Origin: Peduovirus P24E6b
Length of the DNA stretch: 31,128 nt
Sequence record: NC_049389.1
Strand: one strand, 5' to 3'
A model generated the notes under the pieces. The model was not told the DNA's origin, did not search any database, and saw only the letters and a program-made list of their open reading frames with translations. Position numbers and translations under genes: made by a program. This document shows positions 1,225 through 31,128 of the stretch, piece after piece; the stretch's first letter is position 1, and every line of letters begins with the position of its first letter.

Positions 1225-2996
1225 CAGTAAAACTCCAGAATGGTGGATGTCAGCGGGGTGCTGATACCGGCGGTGAGTGGCTCATTTAACAGGGCGTGCA
1301 TGGTCGCCCAGGCGAGGTCGGCGTGGCTGGCTTCCTCGCTGCGGCTGGCCTCATAGGTGGCGCTGCGTCCGCTGCTGGTCATGGTCTTGCGGATAGCCAT
1401 AAACGAGCTGGTGATGTCGGTGGCGCTGACGTCATATTCCAGACAGCCACGGCGAATAACGTCTTTTGCCTTGAGCACCATTGCGGTTTTCATTTCCGGC
1501 GTGTAGCGGATATCGCGCGCGGCGGGATAGAACGAGCGCACGAGCTGGAACACGCCGACACCGAGGCCGGTGGCATCAATACCGATGTATTCGACGTTGT
1601 ATTTTTCGGTGAGTTTGCGGATGGATTCCGCCTGAGTGGCAAAGTCCATGCCTTTCCACTGGTGACGCTCAAGTATTCTGAATTTGCCACCGGCCACCAC
1701 CGGCGGTGCCAGCACCACGCATCCGGCGCTGTCGCCACGGTGTGACGGGTCGTAACCAATCCATACCGGGCGGGAGCCGAACGGATTGGCGGCAAACGGC
1801 GCATAGTCTTCCCATTCTTCCAGCGTGTCGACCATGCAGCGTTGCAGCTCCTCAAACGGGAACACCGACGCCTTGTCGTCAACAAATTCACACATGAACA
1901 GGTTTTTAAAATCGTCGGCGCTGTTTTCGCGTTTGAGCTGCTCAATGTCGAACAGCGTGCAGCCGCCTTTCAGGGCATCCTCAATGGTGACAATCTGCCG
2001 CCACTGGCCGTCCGCACAGAGAAGCCCACCGGCAAGGGCGTTATGACTGACGTCGATTTCCACGCGTTCGGCGGCGCTGGCGCGTCCCCGGTTGAACAGT
2101 TCACCCGACCAGAACGGGTAGGCGTCGTGCGCCAGCGTGGACGGGGTGGAGAAATAGGTCGAACGCAGGTGACTCTGTGAGGCCATACCTGATGCCACCT
2201 TACGCAGTACCTGAAAATTCGGGATCCAGAAAATCTCGTCGACGTACAGGTCGCCGTTATGGCTCTGTGCGGTGTTGGAGTTGGTGCCGAGAAAAATCAG
2301 TTTTGCGCCGTTATTGCCCAGGACAATCGGGTCACCGGTCAGGTCAACGTCAACCAGACGGGCAAAGGCGATGATGTATTCGCGGAACACATACGCCTGC
2401 GTTTTACTGGCCGACAGAAAAATCTGGTTATGGCCGGTTTTCAGGGCGCGCAGCAGCGCCTCGCGGGAAAAATAAAACGTCGCGCCAATCTGGCGGGATT
2501 TCAGGATATCGCGGATGCGGTGCTCAAGCCCGGCGCGATACCAGTGCAACTGATAGTCGAAAGACTGCTCAAAGAAAATCTGCTCCAGCTTTTCGATGGC
2601 CTCGTCACTGAAAAAATTCTTTTTCGGTTTGCGCCGCCCGCCTTTGTTGCGGTTAGCGACGTTCGGATTAAGGTCTGCCTCGTTGCCGGTCTGACTGTAA
2701 CGGTTTACCCGTGCCAGTCGTTCAATCTGGCGTCCCAGCAGGTCAATTTCCTTGAAGTCACCGCCGGTTTTCTGCGGTTTGATAATGAGCTGGGTCAGCC
2801 GCGCTTCCAGGCTCATTTCGACACGGCTGATGGGGGCAACGCTGTCCCAGCCGTCGCGCTGTTTCCAGCTCTGCACCGTCGGGCGTTTCATCTGCAACAT
2901 GGCGGCAATCTGCGGCACGGAAAACCCCTGCCAGTACAGCAGCGCCGCCTGACGACGCGGGTCGTGCAAAAGAGTGGTGTCTGTGGTGATGGTCAT
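1224..2996 (-). CDS. P: terminase large (ATPase) subunit, P2 gpP-like
   Basis: ORF runs to 3026 but an internal ATG at 2996 has a GAGGT Shine-Dalgarno 5 nt upstream (minus strand) and gives 590 aa. Position beside the portal and divergent from the scaffold gene matches P2. Confidence 0.85.
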   Translation of the reverse strand: MTITTDTTLLHDPRRQAALLYWQGFSVPQIAAMLQMKRPTVQSWKQRDGWDSVAPISRVEMSLEARLTQLIIKPQKTGGDFKEIDLLGRQIERLARVNRYSQTGNEADLNPNVANRNKGGRRKPKKNFFSDEAIEKLEQIFFEQSFDYQLHWYRAGLEHRIRDILKSRQIGATFYFSREALLRALKTGHNQIFLSASKTQAYVFREYIIAFARLVDVDLTGDPIVLGNNGAKLIFLGTNSNTAQSHNGDLYVDEIFWIPNFQVLRKVASGMASQSHLRSTYFSTPSTLAHDAYPFWSGELFNRGRASAAERVEIDVSHNALAGGLLCADGQWRQIVTIEDALKGGCTLFDIEQLKRENSADDFKNLFMCEFVDDKASVFPFEELQRCMVDTLEEWEDYAPFAANPFGSRPVWIGYDPSHRGDSAGCVVLAPPVVAGGKFRILERHQWKGMDFATQAESIRKLTEKYNVEYIGIDATGLGVGVFQLVRSFYPAARDIRYTPEMKTAMVLKAKDVIRRGCLEYDVSATDITSSFMAIRKTMTSSGRSATYEASRSEEASHADLAWATMHALLNEPLTAGISTPLTSTILEFY

Positions 2997-3169
2997 GAAT
3001 ACCTCGCCGTGATGAATACACGGCAAGGCTACTGAGTCGCGCCCCGCGATTCGCTAAGGTGCTGTTGTGTCAGTGATAAGCCATCCGGGACTGATGGCGG
3101 AGGATGCGCATCGTCGGGAAACTGATGCCGACATGTGACTCCTCTAATCACTATTCAGGACTCCTGACA

Positions 3170-4024
3170 ATGGCAAAAAAAGTCTCAAAATTCTTTCGTA
3201 TCGGCGTTGAGGGTGACACCTGTGACGGGCGTGTCATCAGTGCGCAGGATATTCAGGAAATGGCCGAAACCTTTGACCCGCGTGTCTATGGTTGCCGTAT
3301 TAACCTGGAACATCTGCGCGGCATCCTGCCTGACGGTATTTTTAAACGTTATGGTGATGTGGCCGAACTGAAGGCCGAAAAGATTGACGATGATTCGGCG
3401 CTGAAAGGCAAATGGGCGCTGTTTGCGAAAATCACCCCGACCGATGACCTTATCGCGATGAACAAGGCCGCGCAGAAGGTCTATACCTCAATGGAAATTC
3501 AGCCGAACTTTGCCAATACCGGCAAATGTTATCTGGTGGGTCTGGCCGTCACCGATGACCCGGCAAGCCTCGGCACGGAATACCTGGAATTCTGCCGCAC
3601 GGCAAAACACAACCCCCTGAACCGCTTCAAATTAAGCCCTGAAAACCTGATTTCAGTGGCAACGCCCGTTGAGCTGGAATTTGAAGACCTGCCTGAAACC
3701 GTGTTCACCGCCCTGACCGAAAAGGTGAAGTCCATTTTTGGCCGCAAACAGGCCAGCGATGACGCCCGTCTGAATGACGTGCATGAAGCGGTGACCGCTG
3801 TTGCTGAACATGTGCAGGAAAAACTGAGCGCCACTGAGCAGCGCCTCGCTGAGATGGAAACCGCCTTTTCCGCTCTTAAGCAGGAGGTGACTGACAGGGC
3901 GGATGAAACCAGCCAGGCATTCACCCGCCTGAAAAACAGTCTCGACCACACCGAAAGTCTGACCCAGCAGCGCCGCAGCAAGGCCACCGGTGGTGGCGGT
4001 GACGCCCTGATGACGAACTGCTGA
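3170..4024 (+). CDS. O: capsid scaffolding protein, P2 gpO-like
   Basis: ORF starts at 3104, but ATG at 3170 (MAKKVSKFF...) gives 284 aa, the P2 O length as I recall. Acidic, coiled-coil-like C-terminal part; directly upstream of the major capsid gene. Confidence 0.8.
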   Translation: MAKKVSKFFRIGVEGDTCDGRVISAQDIQEMAETFDPRVYGCRINLEHLRGILPDGIFKRYGDVAELKAEKIDDDSALKGKWALFAKITPTDDLIAMNKAAQKVYTSMEIQPNFANTGKCYLVGLAVTDDPASLGTEYLEFCRTAKHNPLNRFKLSPENLISVATPVELEFEDLPETVFTALTEKVKSIFGRKQASDDARLNDVHEAVTAVAEHVQEKLSATEQRLAEMETAFSALKQEVTDRADETSQAFTRLKNSLDHTESLTQQRRSKATGGGGDALMTNC

Positions 4025-4082
4025 CCGGCGTCAGTCAGTCCGGGAAAACCTTCACGATTAACCCTTAATTTCAGGAAAAACT

Positions 4083-5156
4083 ATGCGCCAGGAAACCCGC
4101 TTTAAATTTAATGCCTACCTGTCCCGTGTTGCCGAACTGAACGGCATCGACGCCGGTGATGTGTCGAAAAAATTCACCGTTGAACCGTCGGTCACCCAGA
4201 CCCTGATGAACACCATGCAGGAGTCCTCTGACTTTCTGACCCGCATCAACATTGTGCCGGTCAGCGAAATGAAAGGGGAAAAAATTGGCATCGGTGTCAC
4301 CGGCTCCATCGCCAGCACCACCGACACCGCCGGTGGCACCGAGCGTCAGCCGAAGGACTTCTCGAAGCTGGCGTCTAACAAGTACGAATGCGACCAGATT
4401 AACTTCGATTTTTATATCCGCTACAAAACGCTGGACCTGTGGGCGCGTTATCAGGATTTCCAGCTCCGTGTCCGTAACGCCATTATCAAACGCCAGTCCC
4501 TTGATTTAATCATGGCCGGTTTTAACGGTGTGAGGCGTGCCGAAACCTCTGACCGCAGCAGCAATCCGATGCTGCAGGATGTGGCGGTCGGCTGGCTGCA
4601 GAAATACCGCAATGAAGCCCCGGCGCGCGTGATGAGCAAGGTCACTGACGAGGAAGGGCACACCACCTCTGAGGTTATCCGCGTGGGTAAGGGCGGTGAT
4701 TATGCCAGCCTTGACGCACTGGTGATGGATGCGACCAACAACCTGATTGAGCCGTGGTATCAGGAAGACCCTGACCTTGTGGTGATTGTGGGACGTCAGC
4801 TACTGGCGGACAAGTATTTTCCCATCGTCAACAAGGAGCAGGACAACAGCGAAATACTGGCCGCTGACGTCATCATCAGCCAGAAACGCATCGGTAACCT
4901 GCCGGCGGTACGCGTCCCGTACTTCCCGGCGGATGCGATGCTCATCACAAAGCTGGAAAACCTGTCCATCTACTACATGGATGACAGCCATCGCCGCGTG
5001 ATTGAGGAAAACCCGAAACTCGACCGCGTGGAGAACTACGAGTCAATGAACATTGATTACGTAGTGGAAGACTACGCCGCCGGTTGTCTGGTGGAAAAAA
5101 TTAAGGTCGGTGATTTCTCCACACTGGCTAAAGCGACCGCAGAGCCGGGAGCGTAA
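4083..5156 (+). CDS. N: major capsid protein, P2 gpN-like
   Basis: 357-aa ORF between the scaffold and small terminase genes; length and position match P2 N. Confidence 0.85.
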   Translation: MRQETRFKFNAYLSRVAELNGIDAGDVSKKFTVEPSVTQTLMNTMQESSDFLTRINIVPVSEMKGEKIGIGVTGSIASTTDTAGGTERQPKDFSKLASNKYECDQINFDFYIRYKTLDLWARYQDFQLRVRNAIIKRQSLDLIMAGFNGVRRAETSDRSSNPMLQDVAVGWLQKYRNEAPARVMSKVTDEEGHTTSEVIRVGKGGDYASLDALVMDATNNLIEPWYQEDPDLVVIVGRQLLADKYFPIVNKEQDNSEILAADVIISQKRIGNLPAVRVPYFPADAMLITKLENLSIYYMDDSHRRVIEENPKLDRVENYESMNIDYVVEDYAAGCLVEKIKVGDFSTLAKATAEPGA

Positions 5157-14625: not shown

Positions 14626-15153
14626 ATGCAGCATTTAAAAAATATTACGGCGGGTAATCCAAAAACGGTTGAACAATATCAATTGACAAAGGGTTTTGAT
14701 GTTGTCTGGTTTTTTTCAGAAGATGGTAAGAACTGGTACGAAGAACAAAAGTATTTTGCTGATGACACGATAAAAATAGCGTACGACAAAGATAATATTA
14801 TCCGCTATGTGGAAAAGGATGTGACAGCTATCAGACCGGATGGATTAAGTGTTGTTGAAGTGGCGGATATTACTGCTAACCGACGGGCGGACATTTCAGG
14901 GGGCTGGATGTTTAAGGACGGCAAAGTGATTAAACGCATTTATACGGCAGAGGAATTGCTGCAGCAGGCAGAAAACCGGAAAGCCAGACTTCTTGCAGAT
15001 GCTGAATCCGTGATTTTGCCGCTGGAGCGCGCGGTCAGACTGAACATGGCAACAGATGAGGAGCGTAGCCGACTGGATGCATGGGAGCGTTACAGCGTTC
15101 TGGTCAGTCGTGTGGATCCTGCAAATCCTGAATGGCCGGAAATGCCGCAATAA
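14626..15153 (+). CDS. G: tail fiber assembly (chaperone) protein, P2 gpG-like
   Basis: 175-aa ORF immediately after the tail fiber gene; size and position match P2 G. Confidence 0.8.
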
Positions 15154-15374
15154 GTTGTATGATCTCTGGAGTGAGCAAACATATCTATGGCACAGAGTAA
15201 AGCCTAATCTGACAGGCCGCTCTGTGTCTGGAGTAGATTTTAGTAAAGCATTATTTTATTAGTGCAAATTCTAATCAATACATTTTATGTATATGATATC
15301 CTGCAGACTTTAATGACTTGGTTTAGGCTAACCAGATAACACTGAAGGAATATTTTTGATAATTAAGGTGCGGT

Positions 15375-15968
15375 ATGTTTACTAAGCGACGATTAAAAAA
15401 TATTAACTGGGAGGCAAGTTCAGTGATTCTTGCCATGGTTCTCTTTGTTGGAAATATATTTTATACAAATCATCGTGATGATATAAGCATGGAGGCTGAG
15501 AGGGACAGTATCAGAACAATGTTTGCATATGAAATCGCTAATAACCATCGCGCTCTCACTTTTCTTGATAAAACGAGATATATTGGCTTTGACGAAAATT
15601 CGGAGCATTTTGTTGGCGAGCCTTTTGCCATTAATGTCAAATCATTAGGGGGGCCTCGCTTACAGATTGCATTAAACCAGACTGATAAAGTGTTTAAATC
15701 CTACTTCAGCGAATTAAGTAAGCTTGATAAAGAGGATGTTACTCTTCTTATGGACTATTACCATGAGCAAAGCATCCTGCTGGAGCGTGTAAAATCTACG
15801 TTACAGAAGATGAAAAGTGGTAATGATATTAAAGTTGATATTGATGGTTACTTATTAGAAGAACACTTCATGAATGAGCTTAATCTTTCTAATATTTTGC
15901 TTAAACGCTATAGCCATTTGTTGTCACAACACGCCAAAGAACATAAAACAAAAGATTTACATAATTGA
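15375..15968 (+). CDS. hypothetical membrane-anchored protein encoded in AT-rich cargo at the P2 Z/fun position
   Basis: 197-aa ORF with AAGGTG Shine-Dalgarno 5 nt upstream; N-terminal hydrophobic segment (SVILAMVLFVGNIFY), then a charged, probably helical soluble domain. Surrounded by AT-rich non-coding DNA unlike the backbone. No recognisable family from sequence alone. Confidence 0.6.
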   Translation: MFTKRRLKNINWEASSVILAMVLFVGNIFYTNHRDDISMEAERDSIRTMFAYEIANNHRALTFLDKTRYIGFDENSEHFVGEPFAINVKSLGGPRLQIALNQTDKVFKSYFSELSKLDKEDVTLLMDYYHEQSILLERVKSTLQKMKSGNDIKVDIDGYLLEEHFMNELNLSNILLKRYSHLLSQHAKEHKTKDLHN

Positions 15969-16174
15969 TAATCTGCTAATGGTTATTCATGGGGTAACTA
16001 TGTTTTATATGTAATCCAACTCAGATGAATTATTGATTCTGGATAATAACCGCAGAGCGGCATATACCCTGACAGGCAAATGTCCGCTTCTTGTTCAAAG
16101 CAGACCGTCAGATTTGATAACTTTTGGGCTATGTAAATTGTCAGTCGGAAAATGAGTGAGTTCAAATCAGGACA

Positions 16175-16297: not shown

Positions 16298-17488
16298 ATG
16301 AGTGACTATCATCACGGCGTGCAGGTGCTGGAGATTAACGACGGCACCCGCGTCATTTCCACCGTATCCACTGCCATTGTCGGCATGATCTGCACGGCCA
16401 GCGATGCGGATGCGGAAACCTTCCCCCTCAATAAACCTGTGCTGATTACCAATGTGCAGAGCGCAATTGCAAAGGCCGGTAAAAAAGGCACGCTGGCGGC
16501 ATCGTTGCAGGCCATCGCAGACCAGTCAAAACCGGTCACCGTTGTCGTGCGCGTGGAAGACGGCACCGGTGATGACGAGGAAACGAAACTCGCGCAGACC
16601 GTTTCCAATATCATCGGCACCACCGACGAAAACGGTCAGTATACCGGACTGAAAGCCCTGCTGGCGGCAGAGTCGGTAACCGGTGTTAAACCGCGTATTC
16701 TCGGCGTGCCGGGACTGGATACCAAAGAGGTGGCTGTTGCACTGGCATCAGTCTGTCAGAAGCTGCGCGCTTTCGGGTATATCAGCGCATGGGGCTGTAA
16801 AACCATTTCCGAGGTGAAAGCTTACCGCCAGAATTTCAGCCAGCGTGAGCTGATGGTCATCTGGCCGGATTTCCTCGCATGGGATACTGTCACCAGTACC
16901 ACCGCCACCGCGTATGCCACCGCCCGTGCGCTGGGGCTGCGCGCTAAAATCGACCAGGAGCAGGGCTGGCATAAAACGCTGTCCAATGTCGGGGTGAACG
17001 GTGTTACCGGCATCAGCGCATCTGTATTCTGGGATTTGCAGGAGTCCGGCACCGATGCTGACCTGCTTAACGAGTCAGGCGTCACAACGCTGATTCGCCG
17101 TGACGGTTTCCGGTTCTGGGGTAACCGTACCTGCTCTGATGACCCGCTGTTCCTCTTTGAAAACTACACCCGCACCGCGCAGGTGCTGGCCGACACGATG
17201 GCTGAGGCGCACATGTGGGCGGTGGACAAGCCCATCACCGCAACGCTGATTCGCGACATCGTTGACGGCATCAATGCCAAATTCCGTGAGCTGAAAACAA
17301 ACGGCTATATCGTGGATGCGACCTGCTGGTTCAGCGAAGAATCCAACGATGCGGAAACCCTCAAGGCCGGAAAACTGTATATCGACTACGACTATACCCC
17401 GGTGCCTCCTCTCGAAAACCTGACCCTGCGCCAGCGTATTACCGATAAATACCTGGCAAATCTGGTCACCTCGGTTAACAGCAATTAA
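16298..17488 (+). CDS. FI: contractile tail sheath protein, P2 gpFI-like
   Basis: 396-aa ORF heading the FI-FII-E-T-U-D block; length matches P2 FI. Confidence 0.85.
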   Translation: MSDYHHGVQVLEINDGTRVISTVSTAIVGMICTASDADAETFPLNKPVLITNVQSAIAKAGKKGTLAASLQAIADQSKPVTVVVRVEDGTGDDEETKLAQTVSNIIGTTDENGQYTGLKALLAAESVTGVKPRILGVPGLDTKEVAVALASVCQKLRAFGYISAWGCKTISEVKAYRQNFSQRELMVIWPDFLAWDTVTSTTATAYATARALGLRAKIDQEQGWHKTLSNVGVNGVTGISASVFWDLQESGTDADLLNESGVTTLIRRDGFRFWGNRTCSDDPLFLFENYTRTAQVLADTMAEAHMWAVDKPITATLIRDIVDGINAKFRELKTNGYIVDATCWFSEESNDAETLKAGKLYIDYDYTPVPPLENLTLRQRITDKYLANLVTSVNSN

Positions 17489-26461: not shown

Positions 26462-26733
26462 GTATTCGTATTGAAATTGGCGAACGTTATGTCGTTACCA
26501 GTGACAGCTTTCAGTTTATTCTCCACGAGAAAAAGAGAGCGGAAAGCGGTAAAAACGCCGGTCAGGAATGGCTGGCGGTGGTTGGTTATTACCCGAAATT
26601 AAGCCAGCTCGTTTCCGGCCTGATGCATCACGATATTCTGACCGGAAGCGCAAAATCTTTTGCTGATTTAAACGCGCAGGTTGAGCAACTCAGCAAGCGT
26701 TGTTCAGAGGCTTTTGGCTCATATGGCCGTTAA
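26458..26733 (+). CDS. hypothetical early protein (P2 orf83 position)
   Basis: 91-aa ORF overlapping the previous stop and the start of A. Confidence 0.5.
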   Translation: MSIRIEIGERYVVTSDSFQFILHEKKRAESGKNAGQEWLAVVGYYPKLSQLVSGLMHHDILTGSAKSFADLNAQVEQLSKRCSEAFGSYGR

Positions 26734-29002
26734 AGCCTCCGGGCGTTTTGTCCCTCCGTCAGCATTTGCCGCAGGCACCGGTAAGACATTTACCGGTGCT
26801 TATGCATGGAACGCGCCACGCGAGGCCGTCGGGCGCGAAAGACCCCTTACACGTGACGAGATGCGTCAGGTGCAAGGTGTTTTATCCACGATTAACCGCC
26901 TGCCTTACTTTTTGCGTTCGCTGTTTACTTCACGCTATGACTACATCCGGCGCAATAAAAGCCCGGTGCACGGGTTTTATTTCCTCACATCCACTTTTCA
27001 GCGTCGTTTATGGCCGCGCATTGAGCGTGTGAATCAGCGCCATGAAATGAACACCGACGCGTCGATGCTGTTTCTGGCTGAGCGTGACCACTATGCGCGC
27101 CTGCCGGGAATGAATGACAAGGAGCTGAAAAAGTTTGCCGCCCGTATCTCATCGCAGCTTTTCATGATGTATGAGGAACTCAGCGATGCCTGGGTGGATG
27201 CGCATGGCGAGAAAGAATCGCTGTTTACGGATGAGGCGCAGGCTCACCTCTATGGTCATGTTGCTGGCGCTGCACGTGCTTTCAATATTTCCCCGCTTTA
27301 CTGGAAAAAATACCGTAAAGGACAGATGACCACGAGGCAGGCATATTCTGCCATTGCCCGTCTGTTTAACGATGAGTGGTGGACTCATCAGCTTAAAGGC
27401 CAGCGTATGCGCTGGCATGAAGCGTTACTGATAGCTGTCGGGGAGGTCAATAAAGACCGTTCTCCTTATGCCAGTAAACACGCCATTCGTGATGTGCGTG
27501 CGCGCCGCCAGGCAAATCTGGAATTTCTTAAATCGTGTGACCTTGAAAACAGGGAAACCGGCGAGCGCATCGACCTTATCAGTAAGGTGATGGGCAGTAT
27601 TTCTAATCCTGAAGTTCGCCGGATGGAGCTGATGAACACCATTGCCGGTATTGAGCGTTACGCCGCCGCAGAGGGTGATGTGGGGATGTTTATCACGCTG
27701 ACCGCGCCGTCAAAGTATCACCCGACACGTCAGGTCAGAAAAGGCGAAAGTAAAACCGTTCAGCTAAATCACGGCTGGAACGATGAGGCATTTAATCCAA
27801 AGGATGCGCAGCGTTATCTCTGCCGCATCTGGAGCCTGATGCGCACGGCATTCAAGGATAATGATTTACAGGTCTACGGTTTGCGTGTCGTCGAGCCACA
27901 CCACGACGGAACGCCGCACTGGCATATGATGCTTTTTTGTAATCCACGCCAGCGTAACCAGATTATCGAAATCATGCGTCGCTACGCGCTCAAAGAGGAT
28001 GGAGACGAAAGAGGAGCTGCGCGAAACCGTTTTCAGGCAAAGCACCTTAACCGGGGCGGTGCTGCGGGATATATCGCGAAATACATTTCAAAAAATATCG
28101 ACGGCTATGCACTGGATGGTCAGCTCGATAACGATACCGGTAAGCCGCTTAAAGATACTGCCGCGGCTGTTACCGCATGGGCGTCAACGTGGCGCATCCC
28201 GCAATTTAAAACGGTTGGCCTGCCGACAATGGGGGCTTACCGTGAACTACGCAAATTGCCTCGCGGCGTCAGCATTGCTGATGAGTTTGACGAGCGCGTC
28301 GAGGCTGCACGCGCCGCCGCAGACAGTGGTGATTTTGCGTTGTATATCAGCGCGCAGGGTGGGGCAAATGTCCCGCGCGATTGTCAGACTGTCAGGGTCG
28401 CCCGTAGCCCGTCGGATGACGTTAACGAGTATGAGGAAGAAGTCGAGAGAGTGGTCGGCATTTACGCGCCGCATCTCGGCGCGCGTCATATTCATATCAC
28501 CAGAACGACGGACTGGCGCATTGTGCCGAAAGTTCCGGTCGTTGAGCCCTTGACTTTAAAAAGCGGCATCGCCGCGCCTCGGAGTCCTGTCAATAACTGT
28601 GGAAAGCTCACCGGTGGTGATACTTCGTTACCGGCTCCCACGCCTTCTGAGCACGCCGCAGCAGTGCTTAATCTGGTTGATGACGGTGTTATCGAATGGA
28701 ATGACCCGGAGGTCGTGAGGGCGCTCAGAAGCGCATTAAAACACGGCCTGAGAAGACCAAACCGTCAGCAAAGAAACGGAAGCCCGTTAAAACCGCATGA
28801 AATAGCGCCATCGGCCAGACTGACCCGGTCGGAACGAATGCAAATTACCCGTATCCGCGTTGACCTTGCTCAGAACGGTATCAGGCCGCAGCGATGGGAG
28901 CTTGAGGCGCTGGCGCGAGGGGCTACCATAACATATGGCAGGAAGACGTTTATATATCCTACAATCGATGTGTGTTTGGGATATTCTGCTTTTACAAAAT
29001 GA
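26723..29002 (+). CDS. A: rolling-circle replication initiator (nickase), P2 gpA-like
   Basis: Start at ATG 26723 (MAVKASGRFVPPSAFAAGTGK..., the P2 A N-terminus as I recall), 759 aa; contains an HxH motif (PHWHMM) and a GYIAKYISK tyrosine motif consistent with HUH-type initiators. Confidence 0.85.
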   Translation: MAVKASGRFVPPSAFAAGTGKTFTGAYAWNAPREAVGRERPLTRDEMRQVQGVLSTINRLPYFLRSLFTSRYDYIRRNKSPVHGFYFLTSTFQRRLWPRIERVNQRHEMNTDASMLFLAERDHYARLPGMNDKELKKFAARISSQLFMMYEELSDAWVDAHGEKESLFTDEAQAHLYGHVAGAARAFNISPLYWKKYRKGQMTTRQAYSAIARLFNDEWWTHQLKGQRMRWHEALLIAVGEVNKDRSPYASKHAIRDVRARRQANLEFLKSCDLENRETGERIDLISKVMGSISNPEVRRMELMNTIAGIERYAAAEGDVGMFITLTAPSKYHPTRQVRKGESKTVQLNHGWNDEAFNPKDAQRYLCRIWSLMRTAFKDNDLQVYGLRVVEPHHDGTPHWHMMLFCNPRQRNQIIEIMRRYALKEDGDERGAARNRFQAKHLNRGGAAGYIAKYISKNIDGYALDGQLDNDTGKPLKDTAAAVTAWASTWRIPQFKTVGLPTMGAYRELRKLPRGVSIADEFDERVEAARAAADSGDFALYISAQGGANVPRDCQTVRVARSPSDDVNEYEEEVERVVGIYAPHLGARHIHITRTTDWRIVPKVPVVEPLTLKSGIAAPRSPVNNCGKLTGGDTSLPAPTPSEHAAAVLNLVDDGVIEWNDPEVVRALRSALKHGLRRPNRQQRNGSPLKPHEIAPSARLTRSERMQITRIRVDLAQNGIRPQRWELEALARGATITYGRKTFIYPTIDVCLGYSAFTK

Positions 29003-29117
29003 ATGGTGTCGGAACATAATATTTTCAGGTGTTCAAAGAGTTTGTTCTGATGTTCTTGCTATTTTTGTTTCTTTTGATGAAAATGGCGTCTTTAAAATTG
29101 GTTAAAAGGTGTGTTGT

Positions 29118-29606
29118 ATGGATGGTTTATGGGAAAAAATATCGTCTTATAATATATTTAACAATCTCTTTCCCGGTGCTTTGTTTATTTATTTGTTTGA
29201 GCGGGCAACCAATGTGATATTATCCACAGATGATGTTGTTAAGAATGTGGTACTTTACTATTTTACGGGGATAATTATCGGAAGGATTGGGTCTATTGTT
29301 TTTGAGCCTGTGTTGAAATTTTTGGGGCTGGTAAAATTTGTTCCATATGAGGAATATATCTCAGCATGTAGAAAGGATAATAAAATAGAGCTTCTTCAAG
29401 AAACTGCAAATATGTATAGGACGTTATTCTCTATGTCCTTGGTTTTTTTGTTTTCTTTGTTTTTTGTTTCGTTTGTAGTTGGTGGTGATTACATGGCGTC
29501 GAAATGGATTTCATTGTTTTTGATTTTTGTTTTTATTGTGTCGTACGTTAAGCAAATTAAGTTTATTACATTAAGAGTGAGTAAGGCTAATAATAAGCTG
29601 CCCTAA
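29118..29606 (+). CDS. hypothetical polytopic membrane protein in AT-rich cargo after gene A
   Basis: ATG at 29118 (ORF track begins at GTG 29109); 163 aa with about four hydrophobic helices (FPGALFIYLF, VVLYYFTGIIIGRIGSIVF, LFSMSLVFLFSLFFVSFVVGG, WISLFLIFVFIVSYV); local GC about 30%. Confidence 0.6.
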   Translation: MDGLWEKISSYNIFNNLFPGALFIYLFERATNVILSTDDVVKNVVLYYFTGIIIGRIGSIVFEPVLKFLGLVKFVPYEEYISACRKDNKIELLQETANMYRTLFSMSLVFLFSLFFVSFVVGGDYMASKWISLFLIFVFIVSYVKQIKFITLRVSKANNKLP

Positions 29607-29614
29607 GGCAGCTT
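29595..29614. terminator. hairpin between convergent cargo genes (probable bidirectional terminator)
   Basis: AAGCTGCC-ctaa-GGCAGCTT perfect 8-bp stem; the + gene stop codon lies in the loop and the minus-strand gene stop is at 29621-29623. Confidence 0.55.
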
Positions 29615-29620
29615 AACGAA

Positions 29621-30706
29621 TTATTCTTCAGTCTTATAACTCCTTGCGTATGAGCGTGGGGTGACTGCAGTCCAGCCATCTCTGGCGGGGGCATTACTAG
29701 AATGGCGTTTATTGGTGCCTTCTGTGGCGACTACTTTGGCTCCACGCCTTGTAAAAGCATTAATGACCGCTTGATGAGGGTGTTTATCGGAATCCGGTGC
29801 GCATGATATAAATGCACAAACACCACTTCTTCCTCCTTCGCTTACAATATTTCCAACGAGCTTATTTAGCACCGCTGGACCGATGTTTCTCCTGCTTCCA
29901 TGGTGGGGCACTTGAATAAATGATAATGAGTTATTATTTATATGATCAGCAGCCATATCTAATGCAGTTATTCCTGCATCACCTGTAAATACTAGTGTTT
30001 TATTGTCAATTTCAATTTTTAATATAACGCTTGAATTGTTTTGTGCAGTAGTTGTGTCCTTGTCATCAATTCCCTCATCAGAGAACCAATCAGCAATATA
30101 CTCGACTTGTTCTTTGGCTTTCTCAAAAAAGTAGTTATATGCATCTGTACCACTGGTTGCAGTTGTTTCTGCTTTTTCAGGCATTCTTGCAAAATCGGGG
30201 ATTAATGTTTCATAGTATGCTTGTGTTGGTCCAATAACAACCAGTTTAGAATTGTCCCAAGTCCTGCCTTGAAAAGGCTCCTTAATTTCTATTCCTTTTT
30301 TTTTCGCTGATTTGACGGCATCATAGGCTTTTTGTAGATTATCTTGTATACGTCTGGCAATACTTGCATCTGTTATCCTTCCATCAGCAAATTCCTGCGC
30401 GAGATTTTCATTATGCTCCCAAGGCTGGTGAATCCAGAACTCTTTGACTTCCGCATTCTCAATCACATGCTCAAGGCCGCCAGCATGGTCGCTATCTGGA
30501 TGCGTGGATATGAGTAAGTCAATAGTATTTGTATGATAGTATTTCTGTAAATGTTCAATTATTTGTGGACCAGTGCTTGCGTACCCCGCATCAATTACGA
30601 CAACTTTTTGCTCTGCTCTTGTTCCGTGGAGGTTGCCCCATCTTATGCAGATAGCATCTCCACTTTTTTTTTCTCCAACTGCTAAGAAATCAACTTCGTA
30701 ACCCAT
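29621..30706 (-). CDS. metallo-beta-lactamase-fold hydrolase, ComEC-like (predicted nuclease) in cargo at the P2 tin/old position
   Basis: 361 aa; motifs STHPDSDHAGG (HxDxDH-type MBL motif II, nt ~30485-30505) and VPHHGS near the C-terminus as in ComEC/Rec2-type MBL domains; AAGGG Shine-Dalgarno 8 nt upstream; AT-rich codon usage unlike the backbone. Confidence 0.65.
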   Translation of the reverse strand: MGYEVDFLAVGEKKSGDAICIRWGNLHGTRAEQKVVVIDAGYASTGPQIIEHLQKYYHTNTIDLLISTHPDSDHAGGLEHVIENAEVKEFWIHQPWEHNENLAQEFADGRITDASIARRIQDNLQKAYDAVKSAKKKGIEIKEPFQGRTWDNSKLVVIGPTQAYYETLIPDFARMPEKAETTATSGTDAYNYFFEKAKEQVEYIADWFSDEGIDDKDTTTAQNNSSVILKIEIDNKTLVFTGDAGITALDMAADHINNNSLSFIQVPHHGSRRNIGPAVLNKLVGNIVSEGGRSGVCAFISCAPDSDKHPHQAVINAFTRRGAKVVATEGTNKRHSSNAPARDGWTAVTPRSYARSYKTEE

Positions 30707-31128
30707 TCTTGTGCCCTTCTGTAGTTTTCAACTTTATGTAAGTGTTGTACGCCAAAGTAGTGCAGGACTTGATTAGGCAATCAAAGACCTTTAAAACAAT
30801 ATCAGGATGCATAAATATTCGTGTCTAGATCAATAGATTAGATCGAGTTTTTGATAATCAATTTGCGCCTGCTTCTTGATAACCGTTGTTAGTGTAAATT
30901 TTGCGCAATGTAATTGGCAAATCACTGCGATATGAGTTGCGTGCCAGCCAGCTTTAATATGCAGACTTTGCTATATCTTTCTACACGATTTTTATTTTCA
31001 GATGTGCAAGCATTAGGCGCATTGTTTTGCATGCGTTGGAGCTGCTAGTTTAGATCGTGCTCCGTCAGAATAGGCGCGACACCATGGTGGTCATGCACCT
31101 GCATTAAAACCGACCCATGAAGCGGGCG
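30707..31128. promoter_or_regulatory. AT-rich non-coding region: promoter region for the MBL-fold gene plus right-end packaging (cos-proximal) sequences
   Basis: About 420 bp with no ORF of 60 aa or more, upstream of the minus-strand gene start at 30706 and running to the end of the window. Confidence 0.4.

Follow-up and report, generated by a model that had tools for sequence, protein, structure and literature searches.

A metallo-beta-lactamase-fold hydrolase and a four-helix membrane protein form a candidate defence pair in the accessory hotspot of a P2-like phage

Results

Two convergent genes in the accessory island of Peduovirus P24E6b

The 31,128-nt sequence of Peduovirus P24E6b (record NC_049389.1), referred to here as the window, starts with a P2-type cohesive-end sequence and terminates in a P2-type cohesive (cos) end; it is therefore the complete linear cos-to-cos genome of a P2-like phage. 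Between the replication gene A and the right end lies an AT-rich accessory island with two convergent genes, 14 nt apart, which encode a four-helix membrane protein and a cytoplasmic metallo-hydrolase of the metallo-beta-lactamase (MBL) fold (Table 1). This study examined what these two proteins are, how widely they occur together, and whether the pair may serve as a defence module of the lysogen.

Table 1. Features of the accessory island and its borders in the window
Feature	Coordinates	Strand	Basis
AT-rich accessory island (P2 old/tin hotspot position)	29003..31128		between gpA and right cos end
162-aa four-helix inner-membrane protein, PDC-M48A family, WP_021533448	29118..29606	+	PADLOC, AlphaFold2, hydropathy
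361-aa cytoplasmic ComEC-type MBL-fold metallo-hydrolase, PDC-M48B family, WP_021533447	29621..30706	-	PF00753, PADLOC, AlphaFold2, Foldseek
Shared hairpin of the convergent genes	29595..29614		9-bp stem, minimum free energy -20.9 kcal/mol
Candidate sigma-70 promoter of the membrane-protein gene	28991..29020	+	TTTACA-18-CATAAT, 10/12 consensus
Two weak promoter-like sites upstream of the MBL gene (30827-30798, 30920-30891)	30798..30920	-	9/12 consensus
Replication gene A (gpA), conserved left hotspot flank	26681..29002	+	PF05840, E-value 4.2e-122
Cos-proximal conserved end, common to other peduoviruses	31087..31128		sequence match

An initial annotation, made from the sequence alone, had placed the island at the tin/old position of P2, and this placement was borne out. 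In the Escherichia coli contexts inspected, the pair lies between gpA and the portal gene gpQ of a P2-like prophage, the interval that holds old and tin in P2 (Rousset et al. 2022, PMC9122126). This hotspot comprises 1,650 gene arrangements across 18,150 loci, with defence systems among them (PMC9122126). The phage records also agree with the proposal that the interval is variable while its flanks are conserved: the gpA flank was found in 84 phage records, mostly at 95-99% identity, and the cargo pair in 4, which correspond to three phages and one RefSeq duplicate. The island is 100% identical to that of Escherichia phages D8, 11W and 12W (Peduovirus), and in the search of phage records the other P2-like phages match just the last ~40 bp of the interval. 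The pair is present in 45 of 5,426 complete E. coli genomes, in 22 at >=99% identity and in 23 as a ~73% variant. The GC content of the island is 38.8% vs 52.9% for the rest of the genome, the lowest of any 2.1-kb stretch, with 32.5% in the membrane-protein gene and 41.3% in the MBL gene. Thus, the direction of the contrast first reported (about 30% against 55-60%) was correct and its size was overstated.

Both genes are under purifying selection (dN/dS 0.14-0.22 in comparison with the 73%-identical E. coli variant and a Yersinia variant) and belong to large homologue families, and both open reading frames (ORFs) are therefore real genes. The ATG of the membrane-protein gene at 29118 is preceded by a Shine-Dalgarno sequence (AAGGTG, 29106-29111) and agrees with the N-termini of its homologues; the Shine-Dalgarno sequence of the MBL gene is AAGGG at 30714-30718 on the minus strand. 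The genes converge on a shared hairpin, as first noted, and the structure scores well below shuffled sequences (z = -4.8 on the plus strand and -3.1 on the minus strand). Its loop contains the stop codon of the membrane-protein gene, and its 5' arm encodes the last residues of that protein. A hairpin occurs at the same junction in the diverged variants L107 and L110/L086, where the stem sequences are different. It is a probable bidirectional terminator; a simple terminator scan did not call it, and its T-run is weak. Promoter and terminator scans of the region gave counts no higher than in shuffled sequence, and the regulatory assignments in Table 1 are therefore tentative. Conservation with the 73% variant does not extend into the region upstream of the MBL gene; the match stops at window position 30708. 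The convergent layout is limited to the enterobacterial lineage; elsewhere the pair is co-directional and often overlapping.

The MBL-fold protein

The 361-aa protein was originally described as a ComEC-like MBL protein with the motifs THPDSDH and PHHGS, and its motifs, sequence matches and fold matches all support this description. It passes the PF00753 model (50.9 bits vs a gathering cutoff of 22.7), and its motifs (H69/D71/D73/H74 and H268/H269, respectively) follow the ComEC-type pattern HPDxDH...GD...PHHGS. A word-indexed search retrieved a family of 2,399 homologues. Residues D39, H69, D71, D73, H74, H93, D243, H268 and H269 are invariant among 113 of the homologues; since these include the metal and catalytic residues, the enzyme is very probably active. 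The AlphaFold2 (AF2) model (pLDDT 92.8) matches the MBL fold, with an insertion of ~120 residues (residues 95-215) outside the canonical fold that is rich in invariant residues. The best sequence matches among solved structures were the MBL domains of ComEC (9ic4, 30bt), in which HPDxDH and PHHGS are aligned with those of the window protein. The top Foldseek match was likewise the beta-lactamase-like domain of ComEC (9ic4; E-value 6.4e-14, template-modelling score 0.75 on the target). The pneumococcal phosphorylcholine esterase Pce was second, and the beta-CASP nucleases Cas14, RNase J and IntS11/CPSF73 formed a third tier; other fold matches included phosphodiesterases and lactonase-type hydrolases. 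Weaker PADLOC and NCBIfam matches were obtained for Lamassu-type LmuA MBLs, DRT-associated MBLs, Avs1a and the 6A-MBL enzyme. A search of the protein for a hydrophobic segment or a signal peptide found neither.

Several existing labels were rejected for this protein. Its RefSeq name, "ComEC/Rec2 family competence protein", is misleading and is regarded as an annotation artefact, since the domain content does not support it: the protein has no channel (PF03772) or OB domain, and it scores 50.9 vs 190 for TIGR00361 and 27.7 vs 969 for PRK11539. The "tail protein" label of PHROG 7043 is likewise regarded as an artefact; the match covers positions 619-901 of 1077 of the profile and suggests a chimeric or fused cluster. 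A class B beta-lactamase was rejected as well, with a best bla-type score of 55.5 vs a cutoff of 590 and no signal peptide or hydrophobic N-terminus; all the bla and AiiA models were far below their cutoffs.

The C-terminus of the protein (window positions 29621-29650; tail residues 353-361) belongs to a conserved aromatic-plus-acidic tail that is found across phyla (homologues in loci L005-L038 and L085-L113). In the family, the tail takes forms such as ...Y-x-x-E-E, V-E-D-D and P-E-E-Q-E-E, with or without a partner gene of the cap2_3 type described below. This acidic tail may be an autoinhibitory or partner-docking element. The C-termini of the cap2_3-partnered MBLs were searched for a Gly-type conjugation site and showed no consistent difference, most of the family having the acidic tail.

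The four-helix membrane protein

The ORF at 29118-29606, first reported to encode 163 aa, encodes 162. The four transmembrane (TM) helices assigned to it at that time are backed by hydropathy and by the AF2 model (pLDDT 89.5), which places helices at residues 2-31, 40-68, 89-120 and 126-157 and a short extra helix inside the ~40-residue central loop. The charge distribution suggests an N-in/C-in topology with this basic loop (residues 62-101) in the cytoplasm. Eleven residues are invariant in the family (Y11, P19, G20, Y48, G51, R56, G58, S59, R101, K145 and Q146). A word-indexed search found 176 homologues, and an exhaustive profile search found 1,227 representatives at 50% identity, all of which are small stand-alone proteins. 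Pfam and NCBIfam scans gave no family for the protein. The name "phosphohistidine phosphatase", which it bears in many records, is not supported by its domain content and is regarded as an annotation artefact.

Status of the pair in existing catalogues

The membrane protein matches the PDC-M48A model PDLC04670 (E-value 6.8e-49, positions 1-162 of 164), and the MBL protein matches the PDC-M48B model PDLC04676 (E-value 6.4e-99, positions 5-353 of 357). With both models matched by adjacent genes, the pair is, as judged from the models and the gene positions, the PADLOC candidate PDC-M48, which is a bioinformatic candidate. The two proteins (WP_021533448 and WP_021533447) are also listed in Table S5A of Rousset et al. 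2022 as "hypothetical + Lactamase_B" at the gpA-gpQ hotspot. Table S5B of that study contains a curated system 34, "Lactamase_B", with 107 occurrences and the note "4 TM in protein 2"; the entry is represented by the ~73%-identical variant. System 34 thus comprises the same two genes in the same hotspot, and it is listed only. Neither protein showed homology to Old or Tin at E <= 1 in PADLOC, Pfam or NCBIfam, and neither matched a validated PADLOC system. The initial view that the proteins are neither tin, old nor another named defence protein therefore stands for Old, Tin and the validated systems, and gives way to the entries PDC-M48 and system 34. Similarly, the proposal of an uncharacterised defence module agrees with the position, fold, pairing and contexts of the genes, and the module had already been catalogued in two resources. 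The pair is a known candidate, and the window only rediscovers a catalogue entry.

An identity with the validated "Hydrolase + 3TM" system of Rousset et al. was rejected, because in Table S2 that system is a HAD-like P4 hydrolase whose TM partner is unrelated. In the ~73% E. coli variant, a further ORF of 145 aa (L003, 7826-8263, minus strand; WP_001752367) lies upstream of the MBL gene and points in the same direction. Its product appears repeatedly with Lactamase_B in Table S5A; Pfam and PADLOC gave no match for it, and the window has no counterpart. The ORF could be either a third component or a gene of its own.

Pairing of MBL relatives with unrelated membrane proteins across bacteria

The distribution of the pair was investigated in 80 species-representative loci encoding relatives of the MBL protein; pairing is described for the closer 45. 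In these loci a four-TM gene is mostly adjacent to the MBL gene, usually directly downstream on the same strand with a gap of 0-20 nt, and the stop and start codons sometimes overlap. Such pairs span more than 10 phyla. A sensitive scan for ORFs and TM segments found a TM ORF nearby in 38 of the 45 loci, and several of the exceptions are truncated loci. Just one of the four-TM partners is of the PDC-M48A type. The others belong to at least two further families, of ~215 aa and ~250 aa, which have no PADLOC model and no homology to PDC-M48A that is detectable by hhalign (probability <=1.4%). The MBL proteins paired with these families still match PDC-M48B strongly. Since the PDC-M48 A models do not cover the ~215-aa and ~250-aa partners, with which the same MBL family occurs in most other phyla, the natural system is broader than the PDC-M48 entry.

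The reverse search gave a consistent picture. Every locus of the PDC-M48A family that was examined has an adjacent ComEC-type MBL-like gene; these loci came from enterobacterial prophages, a Pantoea island, Firmicutes, an unclassified bacterium and viral contigs. Two of the PDC-M48A partners have no Pfam hit, and they carry DxDH...GD...HHG motifs and weak matches to PDC-M48B. The same convergent pair as in the window was found in a P2/186-like prophage of Yersinia and in a chromosomal island of Pantoea, where it lies beside an AbiJ-like gene. The genes are thus co-inherited, with an obligate-looking coupling, and are mobile between defence-type contexts. An argument that the MBL can lack a TM partner and never the reverse, which would favour the MBL as the effector, was withdrawn after a missed four-TM gene was found in L030.

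In a Melainabacteria metagenome-assembled genome (L009, 736-3423), tandem MBL genes (365 aa and 274 aa) are followed by a gene for a 244-aa membrane protein. The N-terminus of this protein matches PDC-M48A, and a long insertion lies in its cytoplasmic loop. Among the other partner proteins, only this longer one has a PDC-M48A N-terminus.

The mode of pairing also bears on the possibility of an addiction or toxin-antitoxin-like pair, in which a toxic nuclease or membrane toxin is checked by the other gene, so that the prophage or cassette is stabilised with no anti-phage role. Both kinds of protein, the cytoplasmic nuclease and the small membrane protein, are typical of toxins, and the cassette is mobile between elements. 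However, neither protein resembles a known toxin-antitoxin family in Pfam, NCBIfam or PADLOC, both are of 160-360 aa with conserved catalytic machinery, and their tight operon coupling across phyla comes without the signature of a small labile antitoxin. An addiction pair is therefore extremely improbable; in any case, a pair with toxin-antitoxin function could also act in defence.

Defence-type neighbours and the link with 6A-MBL

Relatives of the pair adjoin a type I restriction-modification (R-M) system, Tn7-like TniB/TniQ, DUF4365, and AAA_21 with RloB. A PADLOC scan of 99 neighbours of MBL homologues, which is descriptive, found R-M methyltransferases, HerA, AbiLi, E1-E2/JAB proteins and second MBLs. 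In Vibrio sinaloensis (L005, 1433-7747), a 2,104-aa DEAD/Helicase_C protein with an MrfA Zn-binding domain is encoded directly upstream of the MBL and TM pair; it may be a larger defence gene or a system adjoining the pair.

These neighbourhoods, together with the fold matches, allow a non-defence role to be weighed. As a moron, the pair would confer a fitness or virulence trait: the MBL would act on a host or environmental small molecule or on an envelope component, for example as a Pce-like esterase, a lactonase or a nucleotide phosphodiesterase, and the partner would be a transporter or anchor. The rank of Pce and the presence of phosphodiesterases and lactonase-type hydrolases among the fold matches are consistent with this role, as are the partition systems and cytolethal distending toxin carried by the P2 hotspot and the polysaccharide-synthesis genes that border the pair in Faecalibacillus and one metagenomic lineage. 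However, the motif is ComEC-like (HPDxDH/PHHGS) and not that of a lactonase or beta-lactamase, to whose bla and AiiA models the protein is a poor match, and the MBL has no signal peptide for an envelope substrate. In addition, R-M, Abi, HerA, Cap2/3-like and Tn7 cargo genes recur as neighbours across phyla, and the PADLOC candidate was derived from defence contexts. A moron of this kind is thus very unlikely.

A further set of loci connects the pair with 6A-MBL, a system of an E2-E1-JAB protein (cap2_3) and an MBL enzyme (NF058523/NF058524). Convergent arrangements of a PDC-M48A-type gene and an operon that encodes an MBL and an E2-E1(ThiF)-JAB fusion were found in two genomes, including that of Aeromonas enteropelogenes. 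The operon products match the NCBIfam "anti-phage 6A-MBL system" models over their full length (E-values 6e-63 and 6.5e-85), just below the curated cutoffs. Genes resembling cap2_3 were found at the related loci L093, L122, L030, L031, L042, L044 and L045. The order is cap2_3, MBL, four-TM gene at L030, L031 and L042, and cap2_3, two-TM gene, MBL at L044 and L045; at these loci the MBL proteins are of the window's own family. The E2-E1-JAB (Cap2/3-like, "6A-MBL") gene is thus an optional third component. The MBL-membrane dyad is thus found either together with a conjugation layer or on its own, much like the cyclic-oligonucleotide-based anti-phage signalling system (CBASS). The window belongs to the second kind: its MBL protein scores 33.8 bits vs a cutoff of 220 for NF058524, and no cap2_3 ORF was found in 29003-31128. 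6A-MBL uses a related MBL-fold enzyme, and the window pair would be a minimal form that lacks the conjugation layer.

This parallel raises the possibility that the pair works in the manner of CBASS or Pycsar (the pyrimidine cyclase system for anti-phage resistance). In that case, the MBL would sense or make a signal, and the four-helix protein would permeabilise or depolarise the inner membrane, leading to abortive infection; the window pair would be a minimal "type I" form of an "MBL pathway", and a "type II" form would add the Cap2/3-like E2-E1-JAB protein. The pairing of one conserved enzyme with at least three unrelated families of small polytopic membrane proteins resembles the swappable TM effectors of type I CBASS and Pycsar. 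The gene orders with cap2_3 given above, the PDC-M48A-type gene that converges on a 6A-MBL-type operon in two genomes, and the weak matches of the longer L009 protein to CBASS "2TM effector" models (E-values 0.002-0.004) point in the same direction. On the other hand, the window has no CD-NTase or cyclase, and its enzyme has a hydrolase fold. MBL-fold enzymes are hydrolases, the nearest characterised relative is a nuclease, and we know of no MBL that generates a signal. In Lamassu-type, Avs1 and HamMAB systems, related MBLs have annotations as effectors or accessory enzymes, and the membrane protein has almost no extramembrane mass for ligand binding beyond its ~40-aa loop. A signalling mechanism of this kind, the main rival of the nuclease-effector model, is therefore considered unlikely.

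Other features of the carrier genomes

A second AT-rich islet (window positions 15200-16100, GC 33-39%) lies between a Caudo_TAP tail-fibre assembly gene (14626-15153) and the tail sheath gene (16298-17488), which we take to be the P2 Z/fun position. It contains a lone ORF at 15375-15968 on the plus strand, whose 197-aa product has no Pfam or PADLOC match; the ORF may be one more moron gene or exclusion gene that is as yet uncharacterised. In several "complete" E. coli chromosome records the island stands at positions 2281-4178 or 2650-4314, and these assemblies have therefore been rotated to begin at the prophage replication gene A. Presumably, automated start-fixing mistook the phage replication gene for the chromosomal origin gene.

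Discussion

In this study, an intact ComEC-type metallo-hydrolase and a four-helix membrane protein were found side by side in the gpA-gpQ hotspot of a P2-like phage. The two genes form an accessory module whose most likely role is protection of the lysogen from other phages or mobile genetic elements, with the MBL acting as a nuclease effector at the membrane; this reading as a whole is given a probability of about one half. That the module acts against phages or mobile elements by some mechanism is probable, and the specific mechanism of a nuclease effector at the membrane is proposed more tentatively, as a possibility that falls a little short of even odds. What is new beyond the catalogue entries is that one MBL family is paired with at least three unrelated four-TM families across phyla, that all homologues of the membrane protein that were examined have a ComEC-type MBL neighbour, that an E2-E1-JAB protein is an optional third component, and that the neighbourhoods are rich in defence genes.

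In the proposed mechanism, the MBL would be the catalytic effector, a Mn/Zn-dependent nuclease or phosphodiesterase like the C-terminal domain of ComEC. The membrane protein would bind it through the conserved basic cytoplasmic loop, the acidic C-terminal tail of the MBL, or both, and in this way a nuclease that could harm its own cell would be tethered and held in check at the inner membrane. Disturbance of the membrane by a phage, or the injection of phage DNA, would release or activate the nuclease, which would then degrade the incoming DNA. The logic would be similar to that of Kiwa, with a membrane sensor and a DNA-directed partner. In other lineages, the E2-E1-JAB (Cap2/3-like) protein may add a conjugation-based regulatory layer to the dyad.

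Several observations weigh against this proposal. The nuclease activity is a prediction from fold and motifs, and with Pce as the second-best fold match the enzyme could act on something other than nucleic acid. The window MBL has no export signal, whereas the domain of ComEC works outside the cytoplasm. In a fold search against the PDB, the membrane protein had no significant counterpart (best E-value 0.2), and no sensor domain was detectable in it. The exchange of unrelated TM families around a single enzyme, together with the Cap2/3-type addition, recalls CBASS and Pycsar, where the TM protein is the effector. In the window the genes are convergent and their predicted promoters are weak, so that co-regulation is not guaranteed. 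The gpA-gpQ hotspot also holds non-defence cargo, namely partition systems and cytolethal distending toxin (PMC9122126). System 34 lies outside the set of cloned and tested systems in Table S2 of Rousset et al. 2022, and a literature search for PDC-M48 and the window accessions found no paper that mentions or tests either.

Comparison with characterised systems helps to place the pair. The closest relative of its MBL protein in sequence and fold is the C-terminal MBL domain of ComEC (9ic4), with which the protein has HPDxDH and PHHGS in common; that domain is a Mn-dependent phosphodiesterase/nuclease (Silale et al. 2021, PMC8579336). In ComEC the nuclease domain is tethered to a membrane channel, whereas the window MBL is stand-alone and cytoplasmic, and differs further in its ~120-residue insertion and acidic tail. 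HamMAB is a system that depends on an active MBL (PMC13069673). Kiwa consists of the small polytopic membrane protein KwaA and the cytoplasmic DNA-directed partner KwaB, and its two-gene arrangement of a membrane protein with a cytoplasmic partner makes it a functional analogy for the nuclease-effector model. However, the window gave no PADLOC Kiwa hit, its membrane protein had no PDB fold match, and its cytoplasmic partner is an MBL hydrolase, whereas KwaB is a DUF4868 protein. Another similar arrangement is Rst_Hydrolase-3Tm from the P4 hotspot, a HAD-like hydrolase with a 3-TM protein that is active against T7 (Rousset 2022). Both are combinations of a hydrolase and a multi-TM protein in a P2/P4-type hotspot, but the window hydrolase has the MBL fold, the partners are unrelated, there is no PADLOC hit, and the published sequences differ.

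A broader and quite unlikely reading is that the dyad is an ancient pan-bacterial immune pair, of which PDC-M48 is one variant and in which the membrane partner was replaced at least three times. The dyad would be the minimal form of an "MBL pathway" that in its elaborated form has a Cap2/3-like E2-E1-JAB protein as well (6A-MBL). Its mode of action would be a "ComEC in reverse", in which a nuclease positioned on the cytoplasmic side of the inner membrane would destroy phage DNA on entry, under the control of the membrane partner and the conserved acidic tail of the enzyme.

In sum, the pair does not amount to a discovery, but it is well suited to experiments. With a length of 1.6 kb it is compact, its carrier is an isolated inducible coliphage (D8/11W/12W), and it occurs in clinical E. 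coli lineages; it is therefore easy to test and relevant to the host range in phage therapy. If the module is a working defence, prophage-encoded immunity gains a class in which an MBL hydrolase is coupled to a membrane protein, a class that is widespread and whose mechanism is unexplored. In that case it would also link PADLOC PDC-M48, the un-modelled MBL and four-TM pairs of many phyla and the ubiquitin-like 6A-MBL, which are now filed separately.

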